Below are positions 3,002-30,721 of a stretch of 34,594 nt of DNA, one piece after another. The notes under the pieces were generated by a model. The model was not told where the DNA came from, searched no databases, and saw only the letters and a list, made by a program, of their open reading frames with translations. Made by a program: the position numbers and the translations under genes. Numbering within the stretch: the first letter of the stretch is position 1; each line of letters starts with the position of its first letter. The stretch covers positions 11,875 to 46,468 of the forward strand of contig CAZJQF010000003.1 of assembly GCA_964547925.1 (NCBI GenBank). The letters are read 5' to 3'. This stretch comes from an uncultured Dehalococcoidales bacterium. Its GTDB lineage: Bacteria; Chloroflexota; Dehalococcoidia; Dehalococcoidales; JAFGLR01.

Positions 3002-4027
3002 TTACAATATTAAGGTAGCATCGCCGAAACTGTAAAACCGGTATTTTTCTTTGATAGCTTCAGCATACGCCCGGTCGATAAACTCTTTTCCGGCGAAAGC
3101 ACTGACCAGCATTAACAGGGTTGTTTTCGGCAGGTGGAAATTAGTAATCATCGCGTCGGTGACTAAGAATTGACGACCGGGTAGAATGAAAAGGTCGACC
3201 CATCCCGCAAAAGGTGTTAGAGGAAGTTGAATACGGGCTGCATGTTCCACGATTCTGGTGGCGGTAGTTCCCACACAAATAACCCTTCTGCCTTTAGCTT
3301 TTGCCTTTGAAATATTTACCGTGGTCTCGGCACTGATACTACCCAATTCCCGGTGAATAATATGCTGTTCCGGGTCTGCTTCCCTGACCGGCTGGAAAGT
3401 ATCGAGTCCGACGTGCAAAGTAACCGGTGTGAAAATAATTCCCTGGTTTTTTATTTTACCGATTAGTTCTTTGGTGAAGTGTAGACCGGCCGTTGGGGCG
3501 GCCACAGAACCTTCAGTTTTAGCATATACGGTCTGATAACGTTCCCTGTCGGATAACGGGGTGTGAATATAAGGAGGCAGCGGTATTTCCCCTATTTTAT
3601 CGATAAAGTCCTCGCTATCGAATTGAACTGTTCTAATACCTTCGTTTTTAGTATCAATGATTTTAACCGAACCGAAGATTTTATCGTAAGTATCTGTTAT
3701 GTCAACTATAGAGCCTGTTTTGAGGCTTTTCCCGGGTTTTACCATGGCTTCCCAGGTATTTTCTTTAATGCGCTGCAACAGCAGCATTTCGACCCGGCCG
3801 CCGGTTCCCGGTTTCCTGCCCTTCAGCCTGGCCGGGATGACACGGCTTTCGTTGTAAACAAGAACATCTCCCGGTTGTAAATATTCGATAATATCGTAAA
3901 AATACCGATGGGTAATCAATTGAGTGGAGCGATTTAAAACAAGTAATCTCGAATGGTCTCTCGGTTCGATGGGTGTTTGGGCAATATACTCAGGAGGTAA
4001 AACGTAATCGAAGTCAGCGGTCTTGAT
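3002..4027 (-). CDS. queA: S-adenosylmethionine:tRNA ribosyltransferase-isomerase (queuosine biosynthesis)
   Basis: The track ORF (3002-3919) starts at a TTG. The same frame stays open upstream and encodes the conserved QueA N-terminus (I)KTADFDYVLPPEYIAQTPIEPRDHSRLLVL. No ATG/GTG/TTG precedes it, so the start is provisionally placed at ATC 4027-4025. That gives 341 aa, a normal QueA length. The rest of the protein (AAPTAGLHFT, GTTATR, SFGDA) is canonical. Confidence 0.85.
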   Translation of the reverse strand: MKTADFDYVLPPEYIAQTPIEPRDHSRLLVLNRSTQLITHRYFYDIIEYLQPGDVLVYNESRVIPARLKGRKPGTGGRVEMLLLQRIKENTWEAMVKPGKSLKTGSIVDITDTYDKIFGSVKIIDTKNEGIRTVQFDSEDFIDKIGEIPLPPYIHTPLSDRERYQTVYAKTEGSVAAPTAGLHFTKELIGKIKNQGIIFTPVTLHVGLDTFQPVREADPEQHIIHRELGSISAETTVNISKAKAKGRRVICVGTTATRIVEHAARIQLPLTPFAGWVDLFILPGRQFLVTDAMITNFHLPKTTLLMLVSAFAGKEFIDRAYAEAIKEKYRFYSFGDATLIL

Positions 4028-4505
4028 GTTCTTCCTGCCTCTTATCCTGGTCTGCTTCCCACCGATATTTTTTATTCTGGCGTAGCGTATCGAGGCTACA
4101 AATTAAACACAGTCCGTTATGGCAGCATATTGTCCCTCCACATTCAGGGCAGCGCCATTTTCCTGCTTCCTCTTCCAAGAACTTTTCGATACCATTCTCT
4201 TTGATGAATTCAAGGTTTTCTATCATACTCATATGATACTTGGTGTGATAGCGTTTATCGAGGTCTTTTAATCTGTTGCAGGGAAATGTATCGCATTCAT
4301 AACAAAAACGCACAAGCCCTTTTGCCACCAGATCACATTGTCGTGACATGAAAGTACAGTTCTTACCACGCGGCCTGCAGCCAGGACAGTATCTCCTGGA
4401 GAATCCCTTTTTATTAAGGTCGGTTTTCATCGCCAGGTAGCTGACGCATAACCCGCAATTCATCCCGCAAGGGGCAATCAATTCTTTGGTAAATAATCTT
4501 TTCAT
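4014..4505 (-). CDS. Cysteine-rich DUF3795-like protein (163 aa)
   Basis: Reads MKRLFTKELIAPCGMNCGLCVSYL...CPGCRP...CYECDTFPCNRL...CPECGG, a DUF3795-type Cys pattern (family assigned from memory). Start set at ATG 4505 because the longer track ORF (to 4583) runs into the tRNA gene. Confidence 0.6.
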   Translation of the reverse strand: MKRLFTKELIAPCGMNCGLCVSYLAMKTDLNKKGFSRRYCPGCRPRGKNCTFMSRQCDLVAKGLVRFCYECDTFPCNRLKDLDKRYHTKYHMSMIENLEFIKENGIEKFLEEEAGKWRCPECGGTICCHNGLCLICSLDTLRQNKKYRWEADQDKRQEEHQDR

Positions 4506-4538
4506 TATTGAATATGAACGAGGCAGAAAATGGAACGG

Positions 4539-4626
4539 CGGAGAGAGTGGGATTCGAACCCACGGTCGCCGAAATAGCGACACACGCTCTCCAGGCGTGC
4601 CTGTTAGGCCACTCCAGCATCTCTCC
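4539..4626 (-). tRNA. tRNA-Ser (anticodon GGA), 88 nt, long variable arm, CCA not encoded
   Basis: The minus strand reads GGAGAGATGCTGGAGTGG...CACGC-CTGGAGA-GCGTG...long variable stem-loop...GTGGGTTCGAATCCCAC-TCTCTCC-G. It has a 7-bp acceptor stem and a GTTCGAATC T-loop. The anticodon loop is CT-GGA-GA. The discriminator G is followed by CCG. Confidence 0.9.
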
Positions 4627-9642: not shown

Positions 9643-10455
9643 GTGGATAATATTTACAAAGAAATATTTTCGAGGAATCTGGGCTTTTTCAATGAGTCTG
9701 AGCAGAACCTACTTCGCAATACCACAGTTGGTGTTGCAGGAGTAGGTGGGGTTGGCGGATTACTGGTCGAGAGATTGATACGGGCAGGGGTCGGTCATAT
9801 CAAATTTACCGACCCCGGCACGTTCGAAGTGAGTAATCTGAACAGGCAGTTCGGCTCAACTATCCATACTATTGATAAATACAAAGCCAGTGTCGTCTAT
9901 CAACAGGTAAGGGATATCAACCCGGAAGCTAAAGTTGAGTACTCCGAAAGAGGTTTGCAGGAAGAATCGGACATTGAGAAATTCGTGGAAGGCTGTGATG
10001 TAGTAGTCGATGAGATGGACACGACCGCATTTAAACAGTCGATTTTACTACAAAGAGCGAGCAGAAAACACGGAATAAAATATATTTTTTCATGTGCTTT
10101 AGGATTCGGGGGTCTACTGGCAATATTTTCATCGGAAGGACAGACGCTGGAAGAATATAATGGAATCACACCTGGAGCGGATCTCGATAAATTAGGTAAT
10201 TTAACGATATCGCTAGAAAAGATGGCTCCCGTTATGCCGTCTTATGCCAGGGCGATTCCATCAGGTTTAATAGAAAAGGTTATGAAAGGCGAAGCTCCGA
10301 TACCATCAAACAGTCTAGGGGTTGGTCTTACATCAATAATGACAGCAAGTGAAACCATCAATGTGATTTTGGGGAAAAGGGAGATATATTTAGCTCCCAA
10401 ATATGTTTATCTTGACCTTTTAGACTTACGGGTAGTTATAGGAACCATGTCCTGA
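9643..10455 (+). CDS. ThiF/MoeB/HesA-family E1-like adenylyltransferase (270 aa)
   Basis: Rossmann nucleotide motif VGVAGVGGVGGLLVERLIRAGVGHIKFTD followed by VSNLNRQ, and DVVVDEMD. I see no CxxC zinc pairs and no rhodanese domain. GTG start. Confidence 0.8.
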   Translation: MDNIYKEIFSRNLGFFNESEQNLLRNTTVGVAGVGGVGGLLVERLIRAGVGHIKFTDPGTFEVSNLNRQFGSTIHTIDKYKASVVYQQVRDINPEAKVEYSERGLQEESDIEKFVEGCDVVVDEMDTTAFKQSILLQRASRKHGIKYIFSCALGFGGLLAIFSSEGQTLEEYNGITPGADLDKLGNLTISLEKMAPVMPSYARAIPSGLIEKVMKGEAPIPSNSLGVGLTSIMTASETINVILGKREIYLAPKYVYLDLLDLRVVIGTMS

Positions 10456-10534
10456 TATTTGAGTTTATTTTAATAACCGTGCAATACTAATACATTATTG
10501 TACTAAATTTGGTTTACTATATCGGAGATAAGCT

Positions 10535-12379
10535 ATGAAAACTTGGATTTGTACTACTCTCTCCAGCTTTTTTAGTCCAATGCAAGGGGCTGCACGGTTA
10601 CATGCGTATGTAAAAAATAAAGGATACGAAGTATGTTTAAAGGATTATAATCAGAATGCTTACTTCTGGCTGTTGTCACGGAAAAATTTAGAACAAGCCT
10701 GCCAGACCTTAAGCTATTCCATAGACTCATCCTCACGCAATCGATATTACCGGGAAGATATAGGCGGTATTTTAACTTTTGCCTCAACCAATAGGATTAA
10801 TGAGTTAATTACAAAGATTACAGGGCAAAAAGAAATACCCCATAAAGACGTATTTTATAACTTACTGGGATTACAGGAACAGATAATTTCAGAAGTTGAG
10901 CAATCAAGGCAGTTATTGGATAGTCATTTTTTAAGCTTACCGCCAGAGGTATTTCTTACAAATTACAGGACATTGCTCGTTGGTAAAGCCATTTTAGACG
11001 CTGTTTATTATCCTGCTATCCTTGATATGGGATTAGGTTTTTTTGGTAATGCCTACTCCACAAGTGCGGAAGATATCTTTCGAGCAACATCGGACAATAG
11101 GTTTAATTTCACTATTCCCTACTTTCAACAGGTAATGCTTTCAGAATTAGAAAAAGAACAACCTGACTTAATCGGCATCTCAATCACGCATACATCCGAA
11201 TTTGTTCCCGCGCTGACCCTTGCAAGGATGGTTAAACATACCAACAAGAAAATCCATATATGTTTAGGAGGATCAACTGTAACTGAAGTTGGTTACAGGA
11301 TTTCTAAAAACCCGCGTTTGTGGGAGCTATTTGACAGCATGGTGCTTGGCCCAGGCGAAGTGGCTTTCAGCGAACTCATTGAAGCGGTCTCAGCGAATAA
11401 AAACCTGGAGAGAGTTCCTAACCTTATATATAAAAATAACGGAGTAATCAGCAGAAGTTCGGAGGAACATGAGTTTGATATCAATGACGCTTGCACCCCG
11501 GAGTATGTATCAGTAAGGCCCAAAACGCCTCTGCCTCTCGAAACCGCATCTGGTTGTTACTGGGGGAAATGTATATTTTGTTATTATCCAAGACAGGGAG
11601 CTGCCGATATTAATACAGGATTTAATAAAAAACGAATACGTGACATCGACCTGGTTCTCCAAGATATACGTAAACTTAAAGATACGTATGATCCTGGATA
11701 TATCGGAATTACAGATTCATCTTTACATCCGAATCGAATTGAGCAAATAGTCGATTATAATAACAAAAATAGTAATCCGGTGAAATTTGCCGCGTTTATC
11801 CGTCTGGAAAAAGAATTTAAATCTGCCGAGTTCTGTAAAAAGATAGCAGCCGGTGGCTTTCTAGGAGGACAGGCCGGATTAGAATCGGGATCTCAGCGAG
11901 TTAACGATATAATCAATAAAGGAGTTAACCTTGAAGATGCTGAAATTATTATACGCAATTTATATAAAGCAGGTTTACTGACTCATTTATATACACTTGT
12001 AGGTACACCGGGTGAGACGGCTCAAAATGCCGGTATGACGCGCGACTTTATTAAACGTCTTCATAAGGAACTTATTTTGGGTTGGCAAATTTATTCATTA
12101 TATGTCGTCGAGAATGGTCCGCTTAGTGAAAGAGCAGAAGAATTTGGCCTTAAAGTGTATCCATTATCCGACGAGTATTTGTCTCAATTTACAGTATTTT
12201 CCGTTGATAAAGGATTATCTCAAAGTGAGAGTACCACCTTGGCTTTGCGTTTTTCAGAAGAGCTCAGGCCCTTAATCAGTGAGTTGCACAATATTATGGA
12301 TATAGAGTCTCATAAGATATTCTTATTGACACAAAAAGCAAATGGATACGGTTTAACAAATACTTATCTTGGGTCATAA
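10535..12379 (+). CDS. B12-binding-domain radical SAM protein (614 aa)
   Basis: Cobalamin-binding-like Rossmann segments (ARLHAYVKNKGYEVCLKDYN ... PDLIGISITHTSEFVPALTLARMVKHTNKKIHICLGGSTVT). The cluster motif is SGCYWGKCIFCYY. Downstream GLESGSQRV is a radical SAM core motif. GGAG lies 7 nt upstream of the ATG. Confidence 0.8.
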   Translation: MKTWICTTLSSFFSPMQGAARLHAYVKNKGYEVCLKDYNQNAYFWLLSRKNLEQACQTLSYSIDSSSRNRYYREDIGGILTFASTNRINELITKITGQKEIPHKDVFYNLLGLQEQIISEVEQSRQLLDSHFLSLPPEVFLTNYRTLLVGKAILDAVYYPAILDMGLGFFGNAYSTSAEDIFRATSDNRFNFTIPYFQQVMLSELEKEQPDLIGISITHTSEFVPALTLARMVKHTNKKIHICLGGSTVTEVGYRISKNPRLWELFDSMVLGPGEVAFSELIEAVSANKNLERVPNLIYKNNGVISRSSEEHEFDINDACTPEYVSVRPKTPLPLETASGCYWGKCIFCYYPRQGAADINTGFNKKRIRDIDLVLQDIRKLKDTYDPGYIGITDSSLHPNRIEQIVDYNNKNSNPVKFAAFIRLEKEFKSAEFCKKIAAGGFLGGQAGLESGSQRVNDIINKGVNLEDAEIIIRNLYKAGLLTHLYTLVGTPGETAQNAGMTRDFIKRLHKELILGWQIYSLYVVENGPLSERAEEFGLKVYPLSDEYLSQFTVFSVDKGLSQSESTTLALRFSEELRPLISELHNIMDIESHKIFLLTQKANGYGLTNTYLGS

Positions 12380-12556
12380 CTATTTATCAAAGGAAGCATC
12401 GTTGCTGCAATTGATATCAGGTATTAGACCATTACAGGTCTGTATTTCGTTAGAGTATCGAAAACATTAAGTCGTTTTAGTTACTTCCGCATAATATTGT
12501 CCGTCATCAAATGGGTATTTAGTACTATGGTCGCACGTGGCATTTAATTATTAGTG

Positions 12557-12585
12557 TTGACAATTAAGCAATTCTAGGCAATAAT
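12557..12585 (+). promoter_or_regulatory. sigma70-like promoter (TTGACA-17 nt-AATAAT) for the GGDEF/HD-GYP gene
   Basis: TTGACA at 12557-12562, 17-nt spacer, AATAAT at 12580-12585. It lies 32 nt upstream of the 12618 start. Confidence 0.55.
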
Positions 12586-12617
12586 CATTCTAAAAGACTT
12601 AAGTTGAAGAAAAACAA

Positions 12618-15113
12618 TTGAACATATATACATCTATACCGCTTTTCAGCGCAATAATATATTTCGTTCTGATATTTTTTGTTTTAAACTCCGGGGTCAG
12701 TAGTACTAAACGAGCCTTCATTCTTTACTTATCTGCAACAATGCTCTGGAGCATCTCGGCATTCATTATTCACGGTAATTTTTTCCCCCAGAATACCCTA
12801 TTGATTAACCAGATAGTAGTTGCAACTGGTTTTATAGTGCCTATTGCATATTATTATTTTATATCTGCATTCACCAATAAAGTCTCCCCACTATTGATCA
12901 TATTAAGTATTTTTTGTTTGGTGACTGTATTGATATTAGATTTCGGTGGGTTTATAGTAAAAAGCTCAGTCGTGGTTGATAACGTACTTTACGTTAAGAT
13001 GAGCATTTTCTTTATGTTAAGTTATCTGGTAACGTTTGTGTTTGTCGGTTTTGGTGTATATTATTTGGTAATCAAATTCCGGAAATCAAACGATCCTTTA
13101 GAACGCAATAGAGTTTCTTACTTGATATTCGGTGTGATCGTGCTAATGGTTTTTAATATCGGTAACTTTTTTGATGCTACATCCAAATATCCCATTGACC
13201 ATGTTGGAAATGTTTTTTACGCTCTGATAATAACCTATACCATCATGAGATATCAGTTATTGAATATCAAGTTTATCTTCCGGAAAGGCTTGACCTACGT
13301 ATTGTTATTACTACCCATGGTGGCTCTTTATGTAGGAATCCTGATTGCCGGTCTGCATTATTTCCCCAGTATTTCGCCCGTTGCAATCGGTATATTTACT
13401 ACGGTAATGGTACTGTTATTGGTTATCGCTTTCCGTACTCTGAATCACGGGGCACAGGAATTAGTCGACCATATATTTTACCGTGAGACATACAAGCACC
13501 GTCAGCTCTTATTAAATATCAGTAATAAACTGGGCGGCGTAATTAACCTGAGCCAGTTAGCCGATGAGATATTACCAACTCTTTGTAAAGCCCTGAGAAT
13601 TTCGCGTGCCCAGTTACTCCTGAGGGATAATAACGGAGGGTTTTCCGCTCAATTTGCTTATCCCGAGATCGAAGAAACGGAAACGGCTCTCGCACTGGAT
13701 TCGGATAATCCGATAATAGGTTGGTTGGAAAAGAAAAACAGACCGTTTGAATTAAGAGAATTGGAAAATATTCCGGAGTTCAAAGGTTTATGGCAATCCG
13801 AGATAGATGAAGTTACCTCAACGAAACTGGGACTGTTTTCTCCGGTTAAAAATAAAGGTGTTCTAACCGGGATATTTGCATTAGGGAAAAAACAGTCCGG
13901 TGTATATTCACAGGAAGACCTCGAGATGACAATGGCGGTGGCCGGTCAGGCCGGTCTGATTATCGAAAATGCCCAGCATTATTCACAGGCATTGTTAAAA
14001 GCCAATACCGACGGACTAACCGGGCTTTATAACCACCGGCATTTCCATGAAAGGTTGGAACAGGAAATTGCCCGCAGTTCACGTTTCGGGACGGTGTTTT
14101 CAGTCATAATTGCGGATATCGATTTATTTAAAGTCTATAACGATAATTACGGGCATCTTGCCGGTGATGAGGTTCTCCGGCGTATCGGAGAATATATCAA
14201 GAGTTCAATCCGGAGCATCGATATTGCTGCCCGGTACGGCGGCGAAGAGTTTGGCGTTATTTTACCGGAAACACGTTTAATGGATGCCCAGGTTGTCGGA
14301 GAACGTATTCGTAAAACAATTGAAGCAAAGACTAATTCACGTGCCATGCCCGTGACCATAAGTGTCGGATTGGCCAGCTGGCCGATAGATGGTGTTATGA
14401 AAGAAGAACTTATCAACCGGGCAGATAAAGCTTTGTACTTTGCTAAACAAAGCGGGAGAAACCGCGTGTGTTTATCCACGGATGTCGTTGATAAAAATCC
14501 ATTACAAAGTGAAAAAGAACTGGAAGTTAATCCCAAATCGCTGAGTATGATTTATGCTCTTGCGGCGACTGTCGATGCGAAAGACCATTATACCTACGGT
14601 CATTCACGGAAAGTAAGCGAGTATGCCGTAGCTCTCGCAGAGGGGGCAAAACTGCCCCAAGAGAAACATTCCATAATCAGGGCTGCCGGATTATTGCACG
14701 ATATCGGAAAAATCGGTATTCCGGATTCTATTTTGAATAAAAAGGAACCCCTTTCCCGTGACGAGTGGGAACCGATAAAAGCCCATCCTCAATTAGGCGT
14801 GGCCATAATCAGACATATTGTGGATTTAACCGATTGTCTGCCGGCTATTTTACACCACCACGAGCACTTTGACGGCAGCGGTTATCCGGCCGGTTTAAAG
14901 GGCAAAAATATACCTATAGAAGCACGCATTTTATCAATAGCCGATGCCTATGAGGCGATGACTTCGCCGCGCGCGTATAGAAAACAGATGACGACCGATG
15001 AAGCGATTGTCGAATTAAAGAAGTGTGCGGGAACACAATTCGACCCGGAGTTAGTCCAGGTTTTCTGCAAACTTCTGGAAACCACACCATCGTGGCGTAC
15101 TACTCAGGGCTAG
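12618..15113 (+). CDS. Membrane sensor protein: 7TM N-terminal domain, GAF, GGDEF diguanylate cyclase, HD-GYP phosphodiesterase
   Basis: About 270 aa of TM helices (HisKA_7TM-like) and a GAF-like region. GGDEF domain: DGLTGLYNHRHF and RYGGEEFGVIL, with RSID (RxxD I-site) 5 residues upstream. HD-GYP domain: HSRKV...LLHDIGKIGIP...HHHEHFDGSGYPAGL. TTG start. Confidence 0.85.
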   Translation: MNIYTSIPLFSAIIYFVLIFFVLNSGVSSTKRAFILYLSATMLWSISAFIIHGNFFPQNTLLINQIVVATGFIVPIAYYYFISAFTNKVSPLLIILSIFCLVTVLILDFGGFIVKSSVVVDNVLYVKMSIFFMLSYLVTFVFVGFGVYYLVIKFRKSNDPLERNRVSYLIFGVIVLMVFNIGNFFDATSKYPIDHVGNVFYALIITYTIMRYQLLNIKFIFRKGLTYVLLLLPMVALYVGILIAGLHYFPSISPVAIGIFTTVMVLLLVIAFRTLNHGAQELVDHIFYRETYKHRQLLLNISNKLGGVINLSQLADEILPTLCKALRISRAQLLLRDNNGGFSAQFAYPEIEETETALALDSDNPIIGWLEKKNRPFELRELENIPEFKGLWQSEIDEVTSTKLGLFSPVKNKGVLTGIFALGKKQSGVYSQEDLEMTMAVAGQAGLIIENAQHYSQALLKANTDGLTGLYNHRHFHERLEQEIARSSRFGTVFSVIIADIDLFKVYNDNYGHLAGDEVLRRIGEYIKSSIRSIDIAARYGGEEFGVILPETRLMDAQVVGERIRKTIEAKTNSRAMPVTISVGLASWPIDGVMKEELINRADKALYFAKQSGRNRVCLSTDVVDKNPLQSEKELEVNPKSLSMIYALAATVDAKDHYTYGHSRKVSEYAVALAEGAKLPQEKHSIIRAAGLLHDIGKIGIPDSILNKKEPLSRDEWEPIKAHPQLGVAIIRHIVDLTDCLPAILHHHEHFDGSGYPAGLKGKNIPIEARILSIADAYEAMTSPRAYRKQMTTDEAIVELKKCAGTQFDPELVQVFCKLLETTPSWRTTQG

Positions 15114-23373: not shown

Positions 23374-23628
23374 TTATACGTGTTCGGGAGTCTGGTATAG
23401 ATGTGCCCTGTCTTTTGCCATCGCGTAAATACAATCCGATTCACAGATATTACCCCAGTTACACCGCCATGAGATCAGTTCGGTATCATCTTTATGTTTA
23501 ATCACATGAGGCACCAGCCAAGCGGTCTTCCGGAGCCTCCTATCACCTTGCAGGAAATCAAAACAGAGTGCGGAACGGGGCATAAAAGCAAAAAGGCCGT
23601 CACGATTGTTTTCAACGTATGAATCCAT
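23374..23628 (-). CDS. Hypothetical small protein (84 aa), Cys/Trp-containing
   Basis: ORF with GGGAGGG 9 nt upstream of ATG 23628 (MDSYVENN...). I recognise no family. The track's longer start (23655) overlaps the SD. Confidence 0.45.
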   Translation of the reverse strand: MDSYVENNRDGLFAFMPRSALCFDFLQGDRRLRKTAWLVPHVIKHKDDTELISWRCNWGNICESDCIYAMAKDRAHLYQTPEHV

Positions 23629-23885
23629 CTTATTCGTCCCTCCCCATTCGTTCAAATTTATATCCGTAGTAAATCATTAATGTAATTGAATAATAAACAA
23701 CAAATAATAATTATATTTTATGGAATAATACACCATCCTTAACATAAATACAATAGGTTAAAGAAAATATTTTCTTAATAATCGTTCCGTATCGTGGTAA
23801 TTTTGGATTACGGAGACAAAATAAGTTAAAATTTTGAATAATAATATTTAATAGTTGATAGATATTTTAATTGGAGTTAACCGTG

Positions 23886-25037
23886 ATGAAAAATCGATAT
23901 AAGTACACGTTGTTAGTGTTTTTAGCTTTAGCTGTTATATCTGTCTCATTTGTGAGCGGATGTTTGTTAGGGTTTGGAACTAAGAATCCAACTGAAAAAC
24001 CTGATTACGGTTTGATAAACCAGGCCTGGAATTCTATCTATCAGTATTATGTCGAACCGGGAAAACTGGATGGGACGGAGCTCAGCCAGGGAGCGGTAAG
24101 GGGTATAGTCGAGGCACTAGATGACCCTCATTCGGCGTATATGGATCCGGATACCACCAAGTTATTCCAGACAAACATCAGCGGCAATTTTGAAGGTATC
24201 GGGGCTACGGTAAATATGAACGAGGATAACTGGCCGATTATCGTAACTCCGATCGAAGGGTCTCCCGCAGCTAATGCCGGTTTAAGACCGGGAGATATTA
24301 TTATTGGTGTAGATGGGGGAACTACCTACGGATTGAATATTACCGAACTTGTTTTGAAAATACGGGGTACTGCCGGGACTCAAGTTACGCTGACGATACA
24401 GCGGGAAGGCGAATCGGAACCCTTGGAAATTGCGGTTACCAGAGCTGTAATTAACATGCCTTCTGTAAAATGGGAAATGAAGGGCGATATTGCATACATT
24501 CGTATCATCGAATTCAGAGAAGACACCAACGAAGAATTGAATAATGTGTTGAGCGAAATCGATATGGTTTTAACTAAAGGGATAATACTGGATTTGCGTA
24601 ATAATCCGGGGGGTATAGTAACTACAGTTGTCGATGTTGCCAGCCATTTTATCGAAAAAGGCATTGTTATAACGATGATAGATAACCAGGGTAATCAGAC
24701 GTCGGATGCGGTTAATCCCAACGGTATATTTACTGACCTGCCGATGGTGGTTCTGGTGAATGAGTATAGCGCCAGCGGCAGTGAAGTACTGGCCGGGGCT
24801 TTACAGGATTATGAGAGAGCAACCATTGCCGGGGTTACGACCTACGGTAAAGGCAGCTACAATATTACTATTCCGCTGGAAGACGGGTCCTCGGTATACC
24901 TGACTATCGGACGGTGGGCAACCCCAAACGGAAATTTAATAGAGGGTAAAGGAATCGTTCCTGATTATGAACTGACGCAGACCGGCGACGAGGAAATTCA
25001 ATGGGCTCTGGATTTCCTTCACGGGTATATAAAATAA
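23886..25037 (+). CDS. S41-family C-terminal processing (tail-specific) peptidase with PDZ domain
   Basis: N-terminal TM/signal anchor. PDZ: GIGATV...PIEGSPAANAGLRPGDIIIGVDG. Catalytic region: LDLRNNPGG, SASGSEVLAGALQD, TYGKGS. TGGAG lies 9 nt upstream of ATG 23886. Confidence 0.85.
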   Translation: MKNRYKYTLLVFLALAVISVSFVSGCLLGFGTKNPTEKPDYGLINQAWNSIYQYYVEPGKLDGTELSQGAVRGIVEALDDPHSAYMDPDTTKLFQTNISGNFEGIGATVNMNEDNWPIIVTPIEGSPAANAGLRPGDIIIGVDGGTTYGLNITELVLKIRGTAGTQVTLTIQREGESEPLEIAVTRAVINMPSVKWEMKGDIAYIRIIEFREDTNEELNNVLSEIDMVLTKGIILDLRNNPGGIVTTVVDVASHFIEKGIVITMIDNQGNQTSDAVNPNGIFTDLPMVVLVNEYSASGSEVLAGALQDYERATIAGVTTYGKGSYNITIPLEDGSSVYLTIGRWATPNGNLIEGKGIVPDYELTQTGDEEIQWALDFLHGYIK

Positions 25038-25047
25038 CCATTTCCGG

Positions 25048-25911
25048 TCATAAAACAAAGCGGACTATAAGAAAGCCGATTATACAGGCCAGAGCAATTG
25101 TCGGTAAGGCCGGAGTAGGCTTGCCCTTGAATAGAAAGGCCTGAGCGATATAAGCTCCGATTAAGCCGATTATCGAAAAAATGGATATTATAATAGCGGC
25201 GGTGAATCCGTAGATAAAGAAAACCGAAACGGTAACCAATAACGGAAATCCGATATCGCCGCCGCCGAGAATCGAATATTCTTTCACCCCTGTAGCCTCG
25301 AATAACTTCTTGAATCCGGCTTTTTTTAGATTAAGATTCCAATTGCGTAGATTCCCCGGGATTACGAAAGCAGGTAAGACATCCGATTCGGATAGTTTCT
25401 GGGCCATCCACATCATATACCCGAGCTTTACAGAGACGAAATCATAGACAGCAATTATTATAAGGAACAGTAAAGCTGCCCATGGGGCTAATATATAACC
25501 GAATACCAGGCCGACACTCACCAACGATAACAGGAGCAAGATGTTTTGCAACCAGACTTTCGGAATAAAAAACCAGGTAATCCCGATGATTATACTGACC
25601 GGTAAGGAAACATATACCGGGAAGAAGAGGCTGAACAAAATGAACAGTCCCCAGACATATATAAAAGTAAATAAAAAAGTTAGAATCAGACGCAGCTTTG
25701 AAACCGGAATTAAAAATAAGACGAGCCCGAGAACGACGACTGCGGCGAAAAAGTAGATAATCGGAATATGCAGACCTGCCTGCGGGGAAGGAAATTGGTT
25801 TACTTCGACATAAGATTTTTCATGAGGCACGATAACGAATGTTATTACCTGAGCCAGGATAAGTAACAGGCAGCCCCAAAAAACCGGCGCGTAAAATATT
25901 CTCTTTAACAT
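25048..25911 (-). CDS. Presenilin / signal-peptide-peptidase-like intramembrane aspartyl protease homologue (A22 family, PSH-like)
   Basis: 287-aa protein with about 9 TM helices. It carries, in order and in hydrophobic segments, AVYDFVSV (YD), LGGGDIGFPLL (GxGD) and KPTPALPTIAL (PAL). This is the diagnostic triad of GxGD aspartyl proteases; YDFVSV resembles the archaeal PSH YDAISV. Confidence 0.7.
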   Translation of the reverse strand: MLKRIFYAPVFWGCLLLILAQVITFVIVPHEKSYVEVNQFPSPQAGLHIPIIYFFAAVVVLGLVLFLIPVSKLRLILTFLFTFIYVWGLFILFSLFFPVYVSLPVSIIIGITWFFIPKVWLQNILLLLSLVSVGLVFGYILAPWAALLFLIIIAVYDFVSVKLGYMMWMAQKLSESDVLPAFVIPGNLRNWNLNLKKAGFKKLFEATGVKEYSILGGGDIGFPLLVTVSVFFIYGFTAAIIISIFSIIGLIGAYIAQAFLFKGKPTPALPTIALACIIGFLIVRFVL

Positions 25912-25980
25912 CTGGTATAAGAATCAGCTATCTTTTTTATTATTGTAACCGACTTAGTGTCATATTGCTAATTACACCGG

Positions 25981-27162
25981 TTAACGCTGTTTGCCTAATT
26001 GAGCCCGGACGTTTAAAAAGTTGATGATATTTTCCCGGGTTATCATGCCAATGACATTACCATTTTCGATAACGGGTACCTGATTAACGTTACTCTGAGA
26101 TAAGATATTCATCACGGTATTCAGGTCTTCATCCGGTTTTACCGCTTTTAACTGGTTTAAGGGAGTCATAGCACCGCGGACCGGTGTGTTAGCCCATTCC
26201 TGGCGGGGCACCTTTTGAATATCCCGCAGTGTTATCATTCCCTCGACGCGGCCGTCGGAAACCACTGTAAAACAGCGCCGGCCTGAGGTCATGATATTTT
26301 CGTTCACTAGAATATCTATCGAAAGTCCTGGGGGAATGATGAAACATTCAGCAGACATAATTTCTCTGGCGGCATGCCCTTTCAGCATATCGTTAATAAC
26401 CATTTGCCGGTAACTGCTTGAGGCGGCACTTTCAAGGAACCAGCCGATTAAAATGAACCAGATACCGTTAATAAAATTAGCGGTAAAAAGCAGGAAAATA
26501 CCGCCAAAAATGAACAGGTAACCGATAATCCGTCCGATTGTGGCAGCGATTCGGGTTGCCCTTTGTAGTTTGCCGCTACCCCACCAGATAAGGGCTCGTA
26601 ATACCCTGCCGCCGTCGAGCGGATAACCGGGAATCAGATTAAAAACTCCCAGGGCTAAGTTAATATAACCCAGCCATAATACGATGGCCCCGATAAACTG
26701 AGATAGGAAAGGTTTTGAAGCGGGAATGGTGCTGCCGGTTCCGATAAGAGACGACCAGGTTAAAGTTCCGCCCAGACCTACGAAAACCAACAATAGTAGG
26801 CCCCCGATTAAGATACTGGTGCCCGGTCCGGCAATCGCCATCCAGAACTCATCTCTGGCGGTCTTAGGTTCCTCAGTCATTTCAGAGACCCCGCCGAGTA
26901 TAAAAAGAGTTATTCCGGAGATATGCATGCCTTCCCGGATAGCAACGATGCTATGCATAAGTTCATGAGCCATTACGGAGATGAAAAACAGCAGGCTGGT
27001 TATCACGCCGGCGAAAATGTTCGACAACACCGTCCAGTTCGGATATGTCGCCGGAAAATAGCTGCCGGCTAACGCCCCGGTAACAAGAAGGAAAATAATA
27101 AACCACGACCAGTGTAACTTCAGTGGAATACCGAATGCTTTTCCGATTGGTATACCGCTCAA
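25981..27162 (-). CDS. M50-family site-2 protease with C-terminal tandem CBS domains
   Basis: AHELMHSIVA (HExxH) in a TM helix, NLIPGYPLDGGRVL (NxxPxxxLDG), then two CBS-like repeats (...GRRCFTVVSDGRVEGMITLRDI... / ...VNQVPVIENGNVIGMITRENI...). TTG start. Confidence 0.85.
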   Translation of the reverse strand: MSGIPIGKAFGIPLKLHWSWFIIFLLVTGALAGSYFPATYPNWTVLSNIFAGVITSLLFFISVMAHELMHSIVAIREGMHISGITLFILGGVSEMTEEPKTARDEFWMAIAGPGTSILIGGLLLLVFVGLGGTLTWSSLIGTGSTIPASKPFLSQFIGAIVLWLGYINLALGVFNLIPGYPLDGGRVLRALIWWGSGKLQRATRIAATIGRIIGYLFIFGGIFLLFTANFINGIWFILIGWFLESAASSSYRQMVINDMLKGHAAREIMSAECFIIPPGLSIDILVNENIMTSGRRCFTVVSDGRVEGMITLRDIQKVPRQEWANTPVRGAMTPLNQLKAVKPDEDLNTVMNILSQSNVNQVPVIENGNVIGMITRENIINFLNVRAQLGKQR

Positions 27163-27261: not shown

Positions 27262-28422
27262 TTATTTATCTAATGTGTACCGATGCATGATATTGTAATC
27301 CGGATCTCTAAAGACGATATCGGCGGTATCACCATTGATGGTGATATCCGTAAAGCCGTGTTGCCCGCCGTTATACCAGAAGCTATCCGGGGACTTATAA
27401 GTGTAGTTCGGTTCCAGTTGCCCTCCAAAACCTCCGGTAATAATATAGGTTACGCCGGCGTGCTCCAATAATTCAAGCTGGTGAACGTGGCCGGAAAACA
27501 CCATATCAACGCCGTATTTTTCGAATAACGGGGTAACTGCCCGGATGGTTTCCGGGTTATCATACCATCCCCAGCCGTTTACGACGGAACCTGAAGCGTA
27601 GTAATGGCCGTGCCCGACGACGATTTTCCAATCATCAGGGGGTATCGATTTAAGCTGGTTCTCCAGCCAGGCAGCCTGTTCTGCAGTGAATGTTTCCGCA
27701 CTCCATTCGACATCCAGACAGAGAAAATGGATATTCCCGATATCGTAGCGGTGCCATAATTGAGAACCGGAGTCATTACAGTAATAGTTGTATTTTTCCA
27801 GGCCGGTAAAGAGAGTATCATGGTTTCCCGGTATGAAAGCGGTGGGGATATTTGATATTACAGGTTCAAGATAATTAAAAGCCGTCTGCCATTGCGAATC
27901 GGAAAAACCCAATTCGACAAGGTCGCCAGCCGAAAAAACACAATCGAAACCGTTATCAGGGTTGGCGATGGCCTCGAGCATTTGAGCCGAAAGGTCAGGC
28001 CGGCCGTCCGCAGCACCGAAATGAGCGTCTGAGAAAACAGCGAAATGTAATGTGTTGTTTGCTTCCGGTTTTAAATTACTGAAGTCGATTCGGTTTTCGA
28101 TACGGGATGATACCGGACTGTTCAGGTAGATAAATCCGGCTACAGGTAGAACTATTTCGATAACTGTAAGCAATAATATCGGAGCGATGAACCAGATTTC
28201 TAACCGGTGTTTCGGTTTACGGTCTAAAAATATTTGCCAGACAGCGAGTCCGGCTAAAAAGACGACAGCAAACAATATGATTGCCAGACCAAGACGGAAA
28301 AAGGAATCGATATGCAGCATACCTCCGGTTCCGTGTAAACTTAAAAGCCAACCGAGGAAGCTCAGCATTAAAGCAACGGCTACAAAAGGAGATATGCGGT
28401 AAATATATTTTAATGTTTTCAA
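27262..28422 (-). CDS. Membrane-anchored metallophosphoesterase (calcineurin-like)
   Basis: Three or four N-terminal TM helices, then FAVFSDAHFG, SAGDLVE, IPGNHD, VVGHGH and SGHVHQ, the ordered metallophosphoesterase motifs. TTG start. Confidence 0.8.
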   Translation of the reverse strand: MKTLKYIYRISPFVAVALMLSFLGWLLSLHGTGGMLHIDSFFRLGLAIILFAVVFLAGLAVWQIFLDRKPKHRLEIWFIAPILLLTVIEIVLPVAGFIYLNSPVSSRIENRIDFSNLKPEANNTLHFAVFSDAHFGAADGRPDLSAQMLEAIANPDNGFDCVFSAGDLVELGFSDSQWQTAFNYLEPVISNIPTAFIPGNHDTLFTGLEKYNYYCNDSGSQLWHRYDIGNIHFLCLDVEWSAETFTAEQAAWLENQLKSIPPDDWKIVVGHGHYYASGSVVNGWGWYDNPETIRAVTPLFEKYGVDMVFSGHVHQLELLEHAGVTYIITGGFGGQLEPNYTYKSPDSFWYNGGQHGFTDITINGDTADIVFRDPDYNIMHRYTLDK

Positions 28423-29016: not shown

Positions 29017-29727
29017 TTATTTAGCCATTGCCTGACGCCTTAAAACGTCAGGCATTTTTTCTATGGCGTAGCGGAGAGCGGTCCGGGGCATCGTGGCTTT
29101 ATTTTTCATGACGTAAGCGAATATTTCCGATTCATGCTTACGGCTGCCTTCTTTAAGCATCCAACCATAACCCTTTTGCACCAAATCCTCCTTATCGTGG
29201 AGGAGAATATCGGCTATCTCAAAAACGTCGTTGAGGAACTTGCCGTCTCGGGCCGGTAAGATTAAAGATACTGCAGCCGCCCGCCGCAGCCACATATTAT
29301 CCGATTTCGCCCACTGTTTAAGCGTGGACATATATTCCGGATACAGTTCAATAAATGCCCCGACGGTATGGTTGCACAAGGTATCGCACTTGGCCCAGGT
29401 GTTAACATATTTATTCAGCCAGGTTTCAAAGACGGTTAAATCGGCCGGTTTATATTGTTTTCGTAAATAATACGACCACTCGAAGGCAATATAAGCTTCT
29501 TCGCTGTAATCGGATTTAAGTAATTCTTCGCAAAGATTAAATATATCGGCTTTTGATAACTGTCTAATCTGATAATAATATTTCCGGGCTATTTCGCTAA
29601 CCAGATACGTCTTCACACCATATACTTTAACGGCTTCTTTAAAATAACGCCGGGTGCCGTCTCTGGTTTTTTCGTCGATATTTCGTGTCAGTTCATCCCG
29701 GATTTCAGAAATGATGTTCGTATTCAT
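29017..29727 (-). CDS. DNA alkylation repair protein (AlkD-like HEAT-repeat family)
   Basis: Reads MNTNIISEIRDEL...RRYFKEAVKVYGVKT...WAKSDNMWLRRAAAVSLI...VQKGYGWMLKEGSRKH, typical of the DNA_alkylation family (~235 aa). The track's extension to 29907 would overlap the divergent lipoprotein gene and adds non-conserved sequence. Confidence 0.75.
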   Translation of the reverse strand: MNTNIISEIRDELTRNIDEKTRDGTRRYFKEAVKVYGVKTYLVSEIARKYYYQIRQLSKADIFNLCEELLKSDYSEEAYIAFEWSYYLRKQYKPADLTVFETWLNKYVNTWAKCDTLCNHTVGAFIELYPEYMSTLKQWAKSDNMWLRRAAAVSLILPARDGKFLNDVFEIADILLHDKEDLVQKGYGWMLKEGSRKHESEIFAYVMKNKATMPRTALRYAIEKMPDVLRRQAMAK

Positions 29728-29815
29728 AATTGGTTTTAATGATAACAGAGATGTAATACCCTTACAATAATCAGCGTATAAATTAATAAATAACACTTCA
29801 GTGCAGGAGCTTAAA

Positions 29816-30721
29816 ATGGCCGTAAATAAATCCCACATCGTTATCTCTATTGCATTAATTATCGTGTCCTCGTTACTGTTAATCCTGCCCGGATGTTCGA
29901 AAAACACCTCCGAAGGATTTGCGGTTTATCTCACGAAGAACGATATCCCGCCGGCTCAAATGGAGATTATGAGTCATGTTGCATTAATGGACGAGCCGAT
30001 AATCTCTTCCGCTGATATCGAAGTATATAATGCTCAGACTCATGAAATAAGGTTAACGGCAGCCGCTTTCGAACGGCTTACGCAGCTTGAAGTCCCGGTT
30101 CGGGGAAAGTCGTTTTTAGTCTGTGTGGATAAACAGCCGGTTTACTGGGGGGCGTTTTGGACGCCGGTATCTTCGATGTCCTTCGACGGTATTACTATCT
30201 GGCAGCCGATGAAATTACAGGAACCGTATATTATTACCCTTGAAACGGGTTATCCCTCCGCTTCCTTTTACGGTGGAGAGGACCCGCGGAGTAATCCCGA
30301 GGTCTTACAATCGCTAGAAAAAGACGGTAAATTAATAGATAAGCTGACGATATTTACGGTAACGAAGCTGCCACGTTCGTTCAAGGGTTATGAGCTTTAT
30401 TCCTGGACAGACAGGGGGGAATGGCATTTTACGCTGATAACCGGCACAAACCGCAATAAATTTATAAGTGAAATAATCAGCGAACCGGATTATATTTCCG
30501 AGGCCGGATGGGAAAACATCCACTTAAGCGGAGACGTTCAATTGAAGATTGCGTTAAGTAAAATACCCGCGGGAGAAGAAGTATGCTGGTTGCCCGAGTT
30601 ACGTGCGGAAGAAGCAAACCAAAGCGGTATAGTTTTCGGATATCCGCCGCAAGATATGCTAAACGAAATCATCGCATTTGCACAACTGCAAGGTATCAAC
30701 CTGAGTGTCATAGGTGAGTGA
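29816..30721 (+). CDS. Putative lipoprotein of unknown function (301 aa)
   Basis: Signal peptide MAVNKSHIVISIALIIVSSLLLILPG-C with a lipobox-like LPGC. AGGAG lies 6 nt upstream of ATG 29816. I recognise no family. Confidence 0.6.
   Translation: MAVNKSHIVISIALIIVSSLLLILPGCSKNTSEGFAVYLTKNDIPPAQMEIMSHVALMDEPIISSADIEVYNAQTHEIRLTAAAFERLTQLEVPVRGKSFLVCVDKQPVYWGAFWTPVSSMSFDGITIWQPMKLQEPYIITLETGYPSASFYGGEDPRSNPEVLQSLEKDGKLIDKLTIFTVTKLPRSFKGYELYSWTDRGEWHFTLITGTNRNKFISEIISEPDYISEAGWENIHLSGDVQLKIALSKIPAGEEVCWLPELRAEEANQSGIVFGYPPQDMLNEIIAFAQLQGINLSVIGE

Follow-up and report, generated by a model that had tools for sequence, protein, structure and literature searches.

Positions 25048..25911 of the minus strand, in the 34,594-nucleotide stretch of an uncultured Dehalococcoidales bacterium analysed here (hereafter the window), hold a gene that very probably encodes a catalytically competent di-aspartyl protease of the GxGD type. 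Presenilin, signal peptide peptidase (SPP) and the archaeal presenilin/SPP homologue (PSH) are proteases of this type, and the protein, P0001, would represent a bacterial subclade of them in Dehalococcoidales with its closest relatives in Patescibacteria. The initial annotation of the stretch, made from its letters alone, had proposed such a homologue in a bacterium, and the proposal is borne out by hidden Markov model (HMM), profile and fold similarity. The window is a portion of contig 3 in an assembly of 2.03 Mb in 211 contigs, about 90% complete. The gene (287 codons, nine predicted transmembrane helices) was delimited and assigned from its open reading frame (ORF), Pfam, a search of the PDB, an AlphaFold2 (AF2) model and Foldseek.

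At these coordinates the initial annotation had quoted an ORF of 287 residues and had seen in it the three signature motifs of the family, in the proper order and in membrane segments. The ORF is real, but its strand is the minus strand, where it runs uninterrupted from 25911 to 25048; the plus-strand frame across the same interval contains many stops on translation. The motifs are arranged as had been claimed, with AVYDFVSV followed by LGGGDIGFP and then by PTPALPT, and their coordinates were verified by translation. The YD codons (Y156-D157; 25441..25446, minus strand) specify the first catalytic aspartate, in transmembrane helix 6 (TM6, helix 143-162). The GxGD codons (G216-G217-G218-D219; 25255..25266, minus strand) specify the second, where TM7 (helix 217-234) begins on the cytoplasmic side, while the PAL(P) codons (P267-A268-L269-P270; 25102..25113, minus strand) fall immediately ahead of TM9 (helix 269-286).

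P0001 matches Pfam family PF06550 (SPP, 'presenilin aspartyl protease'), which comprises the archaeal-type presenilin/SPP homologues of MEROPS A22, with an E-value of 5e-15 and 56.2 bits, the gathering cut-off being 23.9 bits. The match spans positions 3-277 of the 283 in the model. A six-frame search of the genome with PF06550 reproduced it and found a single copy of the gene in the assembly. No other Pfam family was reported for P0001 at E up to 1. Of the families whose search had been suggested at the outset, PF06550 is thus significant, and neither Presenilin (PF01080) nor Peptidase_A22B (PF04258) gave a match at E up to 1. There was likewise no Pfam match to the A24 families (type IV prepilin peptidase/FlaK), which are also GxGD enzymes. 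With phmmer against the PDB, residues 9-282 aligned to PSH (4HYC and related entries) at E 9e-9, YD falling on YD and GGGD on GMGD, and presenilin-1 chains appeared only at E about 0.8-1. The profile of 26 homologues, compared by hhalign with 12 archaeal PSH sequences, aligned over 267 columns with 98.5% probability and E 1.8e-15. This alignment pairs D157 with D162 of PSH and D219 with D220 of PSH, and both columns are invariant in archaeal PSH.

Across the 26 homologues, which are 47-86% identical, Y156, D157, the run L215-G216-G217-G218-D219, P265 and P270 are invariant, and conservation of P267 and A268 is at least 90%. Such constancy of the motifs across the clade is the pattern expected of an active enzyme. 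It bears directly on the idea that P0001 keeps the presenilin fold for a non-proteolytic purpose, for example as a scaffold or an ion-leak channel. For eukaryotic presenilin, roles other than proteolysis have been put forward (PMC6320538). However, the clade and the Patescibacteria relatives alike keep the two aspartates, the GxGD glycines and PAL(P) unchanged or almost unchanged, and a purely non-proteolytic P0001 is hardly credible.

The AF2 model, built from the 26-sequence alignment, has a pLDDT of 84.7, a pTM of 0.84 and nine transmembrane helices. In it D157 is inside helix 143-162, D219 opens helix 217-234 and PAL precedes helix 269-286. Foldseek comparison of this model with the PDB returned 23 top matches of probability 1.00, which are exclusively PSH, presenilin-1, presenilin-2 and SPPL2a. 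Their TM-scores range from 0.42 to 0.74, and the 14 best reach at least 0.59 by either normalisation. The 24th match has an E-value of 1.9, and all matches beyond the top 23 have E above 1; no FlaK or PilD structure is among the significant fold matches. The topology and structure anticipated in the initial annotation are therefore recovered, with both aspartates in adjacent transmembrane helices and the fold matches confined to PSH, presenilins and SPPL2a. Since each aspartate is within a few residues of the cytoplasmic end of its helix, TM6 or TM7, the two are expected at the same membrane depth.

Membrane orientation was predicted by counting lysines and arginines in the loops between the nine model helices, together with three flanking residues on each side. 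Fourteen such residues fall on one face (N-terminus and loops 2-3, 4-5, 6-7 and 8-9) against one on the other, and eight of them belong to the TM6-TM7 loop with its flanks. Under the positive-inside rule this distribution places the N-terminus inside. The model thus predicts that the N-terminus and the 163-216 loop are cytoplasmic and that the C-terminus is outside. The TM6-TM7 loop itself (residues 163-216; 25264..25425, minus strand) is hydrophilic and rich in lysine and arginine. According to DSSP of the AF2 model, it contains a short helix (165-174), to be compared with TM6a of presenilin, and two short beta strands (181-185 and 212-216). Presenilin has its N-terminus inside and SPP has the opposite orientation; the predicted orientation of P0001 is that of presenilin, opposite to that of SPP.

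How the protein would work can be sketched by analogy with its characterized relatives. P0001 probably acts alone, as archaeal PSH does, without partner subunits of the gamma-secretase type, because no adjacent partner gene is conserved (see below). For PSH, cleavage needs no cofactors (PMC2947513). Water activated by the pair of aspartates, in a cavity facing the cytoplasm, would hydrolyse single-span substrates within their transmembrane helix. Since the predicted orientation is presenilin's and not SPP's, the likeliest substrates would be stubs that have short ectodomains and lie in the membrane in type I orientation, with the N-terminus outside and the C-terminus inside; signal peptides would be less likely. 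Presenilin is described as directed at type I substrates and SPP at type II substrates (PMC3663554, PMC1654158). Type-I stubs left behind by sortase were considered as substrates and rejected for the order, Sortase PF04203 being found in none of the 61 Dehalococcoidales genomes surveyed.

The name of the matching Pfam family, SPP, invites another reading, in which P0001 is a functional signal-peptide peptidase that, like eukaryotic SPP, clears away leftover signal peptides and replaces a missing SppA. Indeed S49 SppA has no match in the window's genome and is present in just 10 of the 61 genomes. However, the predicted orientation, N-terminus in, is opposite to that of SPP, and signal peptides are type II oriented. 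Nor do the two genes exclude each other: 3 genomes have both, 13 the presenilin homologue only, 7 SppA only and 38 neither (Fisher p 0.71). They are distributed independently, and substitution for SppA is not supported, there being no anticorrelation. The near-universal M50 protease is, besides, a candidate for the clearing of signal peptides; in E. coli, RseP-type site-2 proteases (S2Ps) do so. A role as signal-peptide peptidase is accordingly improbable, and the reading preferred here is still that of a presenilin-like protease directed at type-I-oriented stubs.

Some points nevertheless tell against this reading. P0001 scores 67.2 bits with NCBIfam NF041679, the archaeal PSH equivalog, for which the cut-off is 125. 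It is therefore a homologue of PSH and no equivalog, and functional equivalence with archaeal PSH is not to be assumed. The orientation suggested for the substrates rests on analogy with the eukaryotic enzymes and on the positive-inside rule. Finally, even archaeal PSH has no known physiological substrate (PMC2947513).

The nearest characterized protein is PSH (MCMJR1) of Methanoculleus marisnigri (4HYC, 4HYD, 4HYG, 4Y6K; NF041679). It is of similar size (301 residues, as against 287 in P0001) and shares with P0001 the nine-transmembrane fold, YD in TM6, GxGD in TM7 and a stand-alone gene without partner subunits. It is the best PDB match by sequence (E 9e-9) and among the best by fold, with a TM-score of 0.72-0.74 normalised to the target. 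Identity between the two is, however, only about 20-25%. Where archaeal sequences have GMGD or GLGD, P0001 has GGGD, and it carries a canonical PALP in place of the AGLP of Methanoculleus PSH; in the segment after TM6 it reads VKLGYMMWMAQKLSESD and PSH VYRTKHMITLAEGVLE. The host of P0001 is bacterial, and a long tree branch separates it from archaeal PSH.

Eukaryotic presenilin-1 and presenilin-2, the catalytic subunit of gamma-secretase, share the fold (TM-score 0.59-0.69 to presenilin-1 chains) as well as YD, GxGD and PALP. The P0001 model further resembles presenilin in the TM6a-like short helix, in the two short strands ahead of TM7 and in the predicted N-terminus-in orientation. P0001 differs from presenilin in having no PF01080 match at E up to 1 and a much shorter cytoplasmic loop, and neither the partners nicastrin, APH-1 and PEN-2 nor endoproteolytic maturation are in evidence. 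SPP and SPPL2a (PF04258, MEROPS A22B) have the same GxGD di-aspartyl mechanism and fold (Foldseek 9K92 and 9K93, TM-score 0.62-0.65), whereas their orientation is opposite to the one predicted for P0001, which has no PF04258 match at E up to 1. Outside Dehalococcoidia, the nearest relatives are the Patescibacteria members, which are 30-40% identical, of equal length, and carry GGGD, GTGD or GSGD together with PALP. They group with the Dehalococcoidia clade as against archaeal PSH, although their hosts belong to another phylum and have genomes of 0.5-1.3 Mb.

The history of the gene was examined with a maximum-likelihood tree of 96 rows, namely 31 from Dehalococcoidia, 18 from Patescibacteria, 27 unlabelled second-tier representatives and 20 from Halobacteriota, so that archaeal sampling is of one phylum. 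A branch of about 3 changes per site (SH-aLRT 100) sets all archaeal rows apart, and the Dehalococcoidia rows fall into a single clade (support 99). The nearest outgroups to this clade, P0253 and P0262, are both bacterial, the latter in a Patescibacteria genome. A NusA gene lies next to P0262; its product is 73% identical to NusA of a 0.5-Mb Patescibacteria genome and about 50% identical, over shorter matches, to Dehalococcoidia NusA. The bacterial group stands well apart from the sampled archaeal PSH.

This separation is hard to reconcile with a recent acquisition of the gene from archaea, or with an archaeal contaminant in the bin. An archaeal horizontal origin had been raised in the initial annotation as something for a phylogeny to settle, and almost every genome of the archaeal phylum that includes Methanoculleus has the family (191 of 201), which in bacteria is patchy. 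However, the contig bears typA/BipA and further bacterial genes, the identical gene order is found in assemblies from other samples, and relatives are present on a complete Dehalococcoidia chromosome and in single-contig genomes. The G+C content of the gene, 0.425, is close to that of the window, 0.438. The PF06550 score is 56 bits, as against 230-430 for the archaeal copies listed, and the equivalog score is 67 against 125 bits. With a long branch of full support between the bacterial sequences and Halobacteriota PSH, a recent transfer is unsupported, and recent archaeal origin or contamination is very unlikely indeed. An ancient transfer from an archaeal lineage is possible, because only one archaeal phylum was sampled and the donor could lie outside it.

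Within the bacterial group, a quick tree placed Dehalococcoidia inside the diversity of Patescibacteria, as a transfer from the candidate phyla radiation (CPR) would predict. This nesting is tentative. An approximately unbiased (AU) test does not reject the alternative of a single clade for all bacterial rows from outside Dehalococcoidia (p 0.68), and the tree so constrained has a slightly higher likelihood; the two bacterial groups may thus be sisters, or one may be nested in the other. A more ambitious reading, which I put forward tentatively and regard as rather doubtful, is that of a distinct, old bacterial presenilin branch common to Dehalococcoidales and Patescibacteria. It would be marked by the presenilin orientation, GGGD/GTGD, a canonical PALP and, following TM6, a conserved G-Y/H-M-M/L-W segment, and would serve a dedicated class of type-I membrane substrates. 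Both groups have atypical cell envelopes. If this were true, the branch would provide a minimal, partner-free bacterial model of presenilin.

How far the family extends among bacteria was examined in several genome sets. PF06550 is found in 16 of the 61 Dehalococcoidales genomes, and in 13 of the 31 of high quality. In a sample of 401 genomes of the phylum it occurs in 9, of which 8 belong to the window's order and 1 lies elsewhere in the class; in the phylum Patescibacteria it occurs in 22 of 301. Among 14 named control genomes, matches were confined to Haloferax volcanii and Methanosarcina acetivorans, the bacteria among the controls giving none, and in the archaeal phylum of Methanoculleus, where 191 of 201 genomes have the family, the listed matches score 230-430 bits. 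Searching 1.84 billion cluster representatives with a profile yielded just 1080 proteins at E up to 1e-3, and the close homologues are labelled Dehalococcoidales or Chloroflexota. In a species-representative collection, an alignment-based scan found 89 relatives, where a scan with the single protein gave none; the 80 that were kept and listed are all from Chloroflexota/Dehalococcoidia assemblies, one of them a complete 1.38-Mb chromosome. In a related genome, the locus L007 (G017:C19:59525-60202) has an in-frame TAG in the presenilin-homologue frame as reported by six-frame search. Its ORF equals that of L052 in the kept alignment columns, and the TAG may sit in an upstream extension and not in the gene.

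Next-tier matches, at 30-40% identity, lie on clearly bacterial contigs, with S20, UvrB, RuvA and a Mur ligase on one and an S13-S11-S4-RpoA-L17 operon with MreB on another; one such contig belongs to a Patescibacteria genome of about 0.5 Mb. Database names for these proteins are 'presenilin family intramembrane aspartyl protease' (NCBI) and 'presenilin-like A22 family membrane protease' (JGI), and the NCBI-type entries carry the organism labels Patescibacteria group bacterium and Candidatus Paceibacterales bacterium. The initial view that a bacterial copy is unusual is right for bacteria at large, as judged from the bacterial controls, which have no match, and from 9 of 401 genomes of the phylum. 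It does not hold for Dehalococcoidales (16/61) or Patescibacteria (22/301), where the proteins have already been named by NCBI and JGI. Bacterial copies are, in short, rare across bacteria, common in two lineages and already annotated by pipelines.

The setting of the gene in the window is bacterial, as had been claimed: its neighbours, typA/BipA among them, are bacterial genes, and the gene order recurs on contigs of other, separately assembled samples. On either side of it lies another protease gene. A convergent gene at 23871..25037 (plus strand) encodes an S41 C-terminal processing protease, CtpB/CtpA-like and with a PDZ domain (Pfam PF03572, PDZ, CtpB_N-like), and its stop is 10 bp from the stop of the presenilin homologue. 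Directly upstream, at 25981..27162 (minus strand), is a gene for a metalloprotease of the M50, site-2-protease type with CBS domains (Pfam PF02163 and CBS; M50-CBS below), preceded in turn by a metallophosphoesterase gene at 27262..28422 (minus strand). The 69-bp spacer between M50-CBS and the presenilin homologue (25912..25980, minus strand) contains one sigma-70-like match, TTAGCA-18-TACAAT at 25971-25942. This is a consensus match only, and promoter-like sites in the region are no more numerous than in shuffles; promoter and terminator scans of the region both gave numbers of sites no higher than in shuffled sequence. No clear Shine-Dalgarno sequence was seen in the 69-bp spacer ahead of the ATG of the presenilin homologue.

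Three adjacent protease genes invite the idea of a cascade of regulated intramembrane proteolysis, in which the CtpB-like S41 enzyme would serve as site-1 or signalling protease while M50-CBS and the presenilin homologue cut a shared substrate. In B. subtilis, activation of SpoIVFB, an M50 enzyme that has a CBS domain, goes through CtpB. The trio of M50-CBS, presenilin homologue and convergent S41 gene is kept on contigs of three other samples, where the presenilin homologues are 86%, 70% and 64% identical, even where the outer genes have changed, and M50-CBS and the presenilin homologue are on the same strand, 69 bp apart. The arrangement does not extend further, however. Relatives at 58% and 50% identity already have different neighbours, and among the 89 more distant Dehalococcoidia loci an S41 homologue is found in 1 and an M50-CBS homologue in none, anywhere in the flanks retrieved. 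M50-CBS orthologues are present in 52 of the 61 genomes of the order and the presenilin homologue in 16. In all other listed genomes that have both, the two genes are on different contigs, and 14 M50-CBS loci examined elsewhere have none of the window's neighbours. As a general feature the three-protease cascade was therefore rejected, the trio being kept only at 64% identity or more, and a cascade acting on a shared substrate is unlikely. Since the trio is lost below 64% identity and M50-CBS is unlinked elsewhere, the best reading of the arrangement is shared synteny, passed down within one family-level lineage.

No conserved partner of the presenilin homologue emerged from tblastn of 17 window proteins against the 89 loci, from all-against-all clustering of flanking ORFs or from Pfam tallies of neighbours. 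The neighbour that recurs most often is an ABC ATPase, at 18 of the 89 loci, and the tallies of immediate neighbours (73 upstream, 79 downstream) peak with MFS at 6 of 73. The presenilin homologue has the character of a stand-alone accessory gene and occurs in about one quarter of the genomes of the order.

The two relatives in which the trio is replaced have neighbours that deserve mention in their own right. At 58% identity, the gene directly upstream (L143 1034-3736) encodes a surface-type protein of about 900 residues with SdrD_B, SpaA and DUF11 domains. At 50% identity, a gene for an Rce1-like CPBP protein (PF02517) overlaps the presenilin homologue by 4 bp (L144 3255-4876), and an M48 gene (Ste24/HtpX-like) lies 1 kb further upstream; this is a second, different protease-rich neighbourhood of the presenilin homologue. 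Outside the window, the assembly encodes a second M50-CBS paralogue (G000:C4:20803-21897) that is 29% identical to the window's copy. A genome of the same genus, G001, has only this second M50-CBS type and no presenilin homologue, and the block may there be missing or unassembled.

In the literature, the paper that identified MCMJR1 in 2010 treated presenilin-like proteins as eukaryotic and archaeal (PMC2947513), and a review of 2015 gives a presenilin/SPP homologue only for an archaeon (PMC4343526). A search for presenilin with Dehalococcoidia found no paper, and one for presenilin with Chloroflex* found only papers on gut or oral microbiomes and Alzheimer disease and one on acidophilic archaea. 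In the best-ranked literature, presenilin or signal peptide peptidase was never combined with Patescibacteria or CPR. The bacterial branch looks unstudied, though it is annotated by pipelines.

Presenilin is the catalytic core of gamma-secretase, which ties it to Alzheimer disease, and simple prokaryotic homologues such as archaeal PSH have been the main route to its structure and mechanism. A bacterial homologue that is small, stands alone and keeps canonical YD, GxGD and PALP could be another tractable model. The gene also shows that bacteria, too, possess the fourth class of intramembrane protease, for which the reviews consulted give eukaryotes and archaea only (PMC4343526, PMC2947513). 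Its identification is, on the other hand, already automatic at NCBI and JGI and the family recurs in many genomes; beyond the lineage-specific protease neighbourhood, this copy adds no new biology.

Other features of the window were noted in passing. Between a YgjP-like gene and the S41 gene, a 93-residue ORF at 23374-23655 (minus strand) belongs to no tested family and is rich in cysteine towards its C-terminus (CNWGNICESDC). Its conservation in two related metagenome contigs, L140 and L142, at 84% and 72% identity makes it probable that this small gene is real. A 306-residue ORF at 29801-30721 (plus strand) has no Pfam match at E up to 0.001 and is 59-69% identical to counterparts in L046 and L140. 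It overlaps the start of a DNA-alkylation-repair gene (29017-29907, minus strand) by about 100 bp, and its true start is probably further downstream. A tRNA-Ser gene (anticodon GGA) at 4537-4626 (minus strand) overlaps, with its 3' part, a 189-residue ORF at 4014-4583, the annotated start of which is for this reason probably wrong. Finally, the interval 10000-14000, which spans the ORFs at 10535-12379 and the start of that at 12618-15113, has a lower G+C content (0.375-0.386) than the approximately 0.44 found elsewhere.

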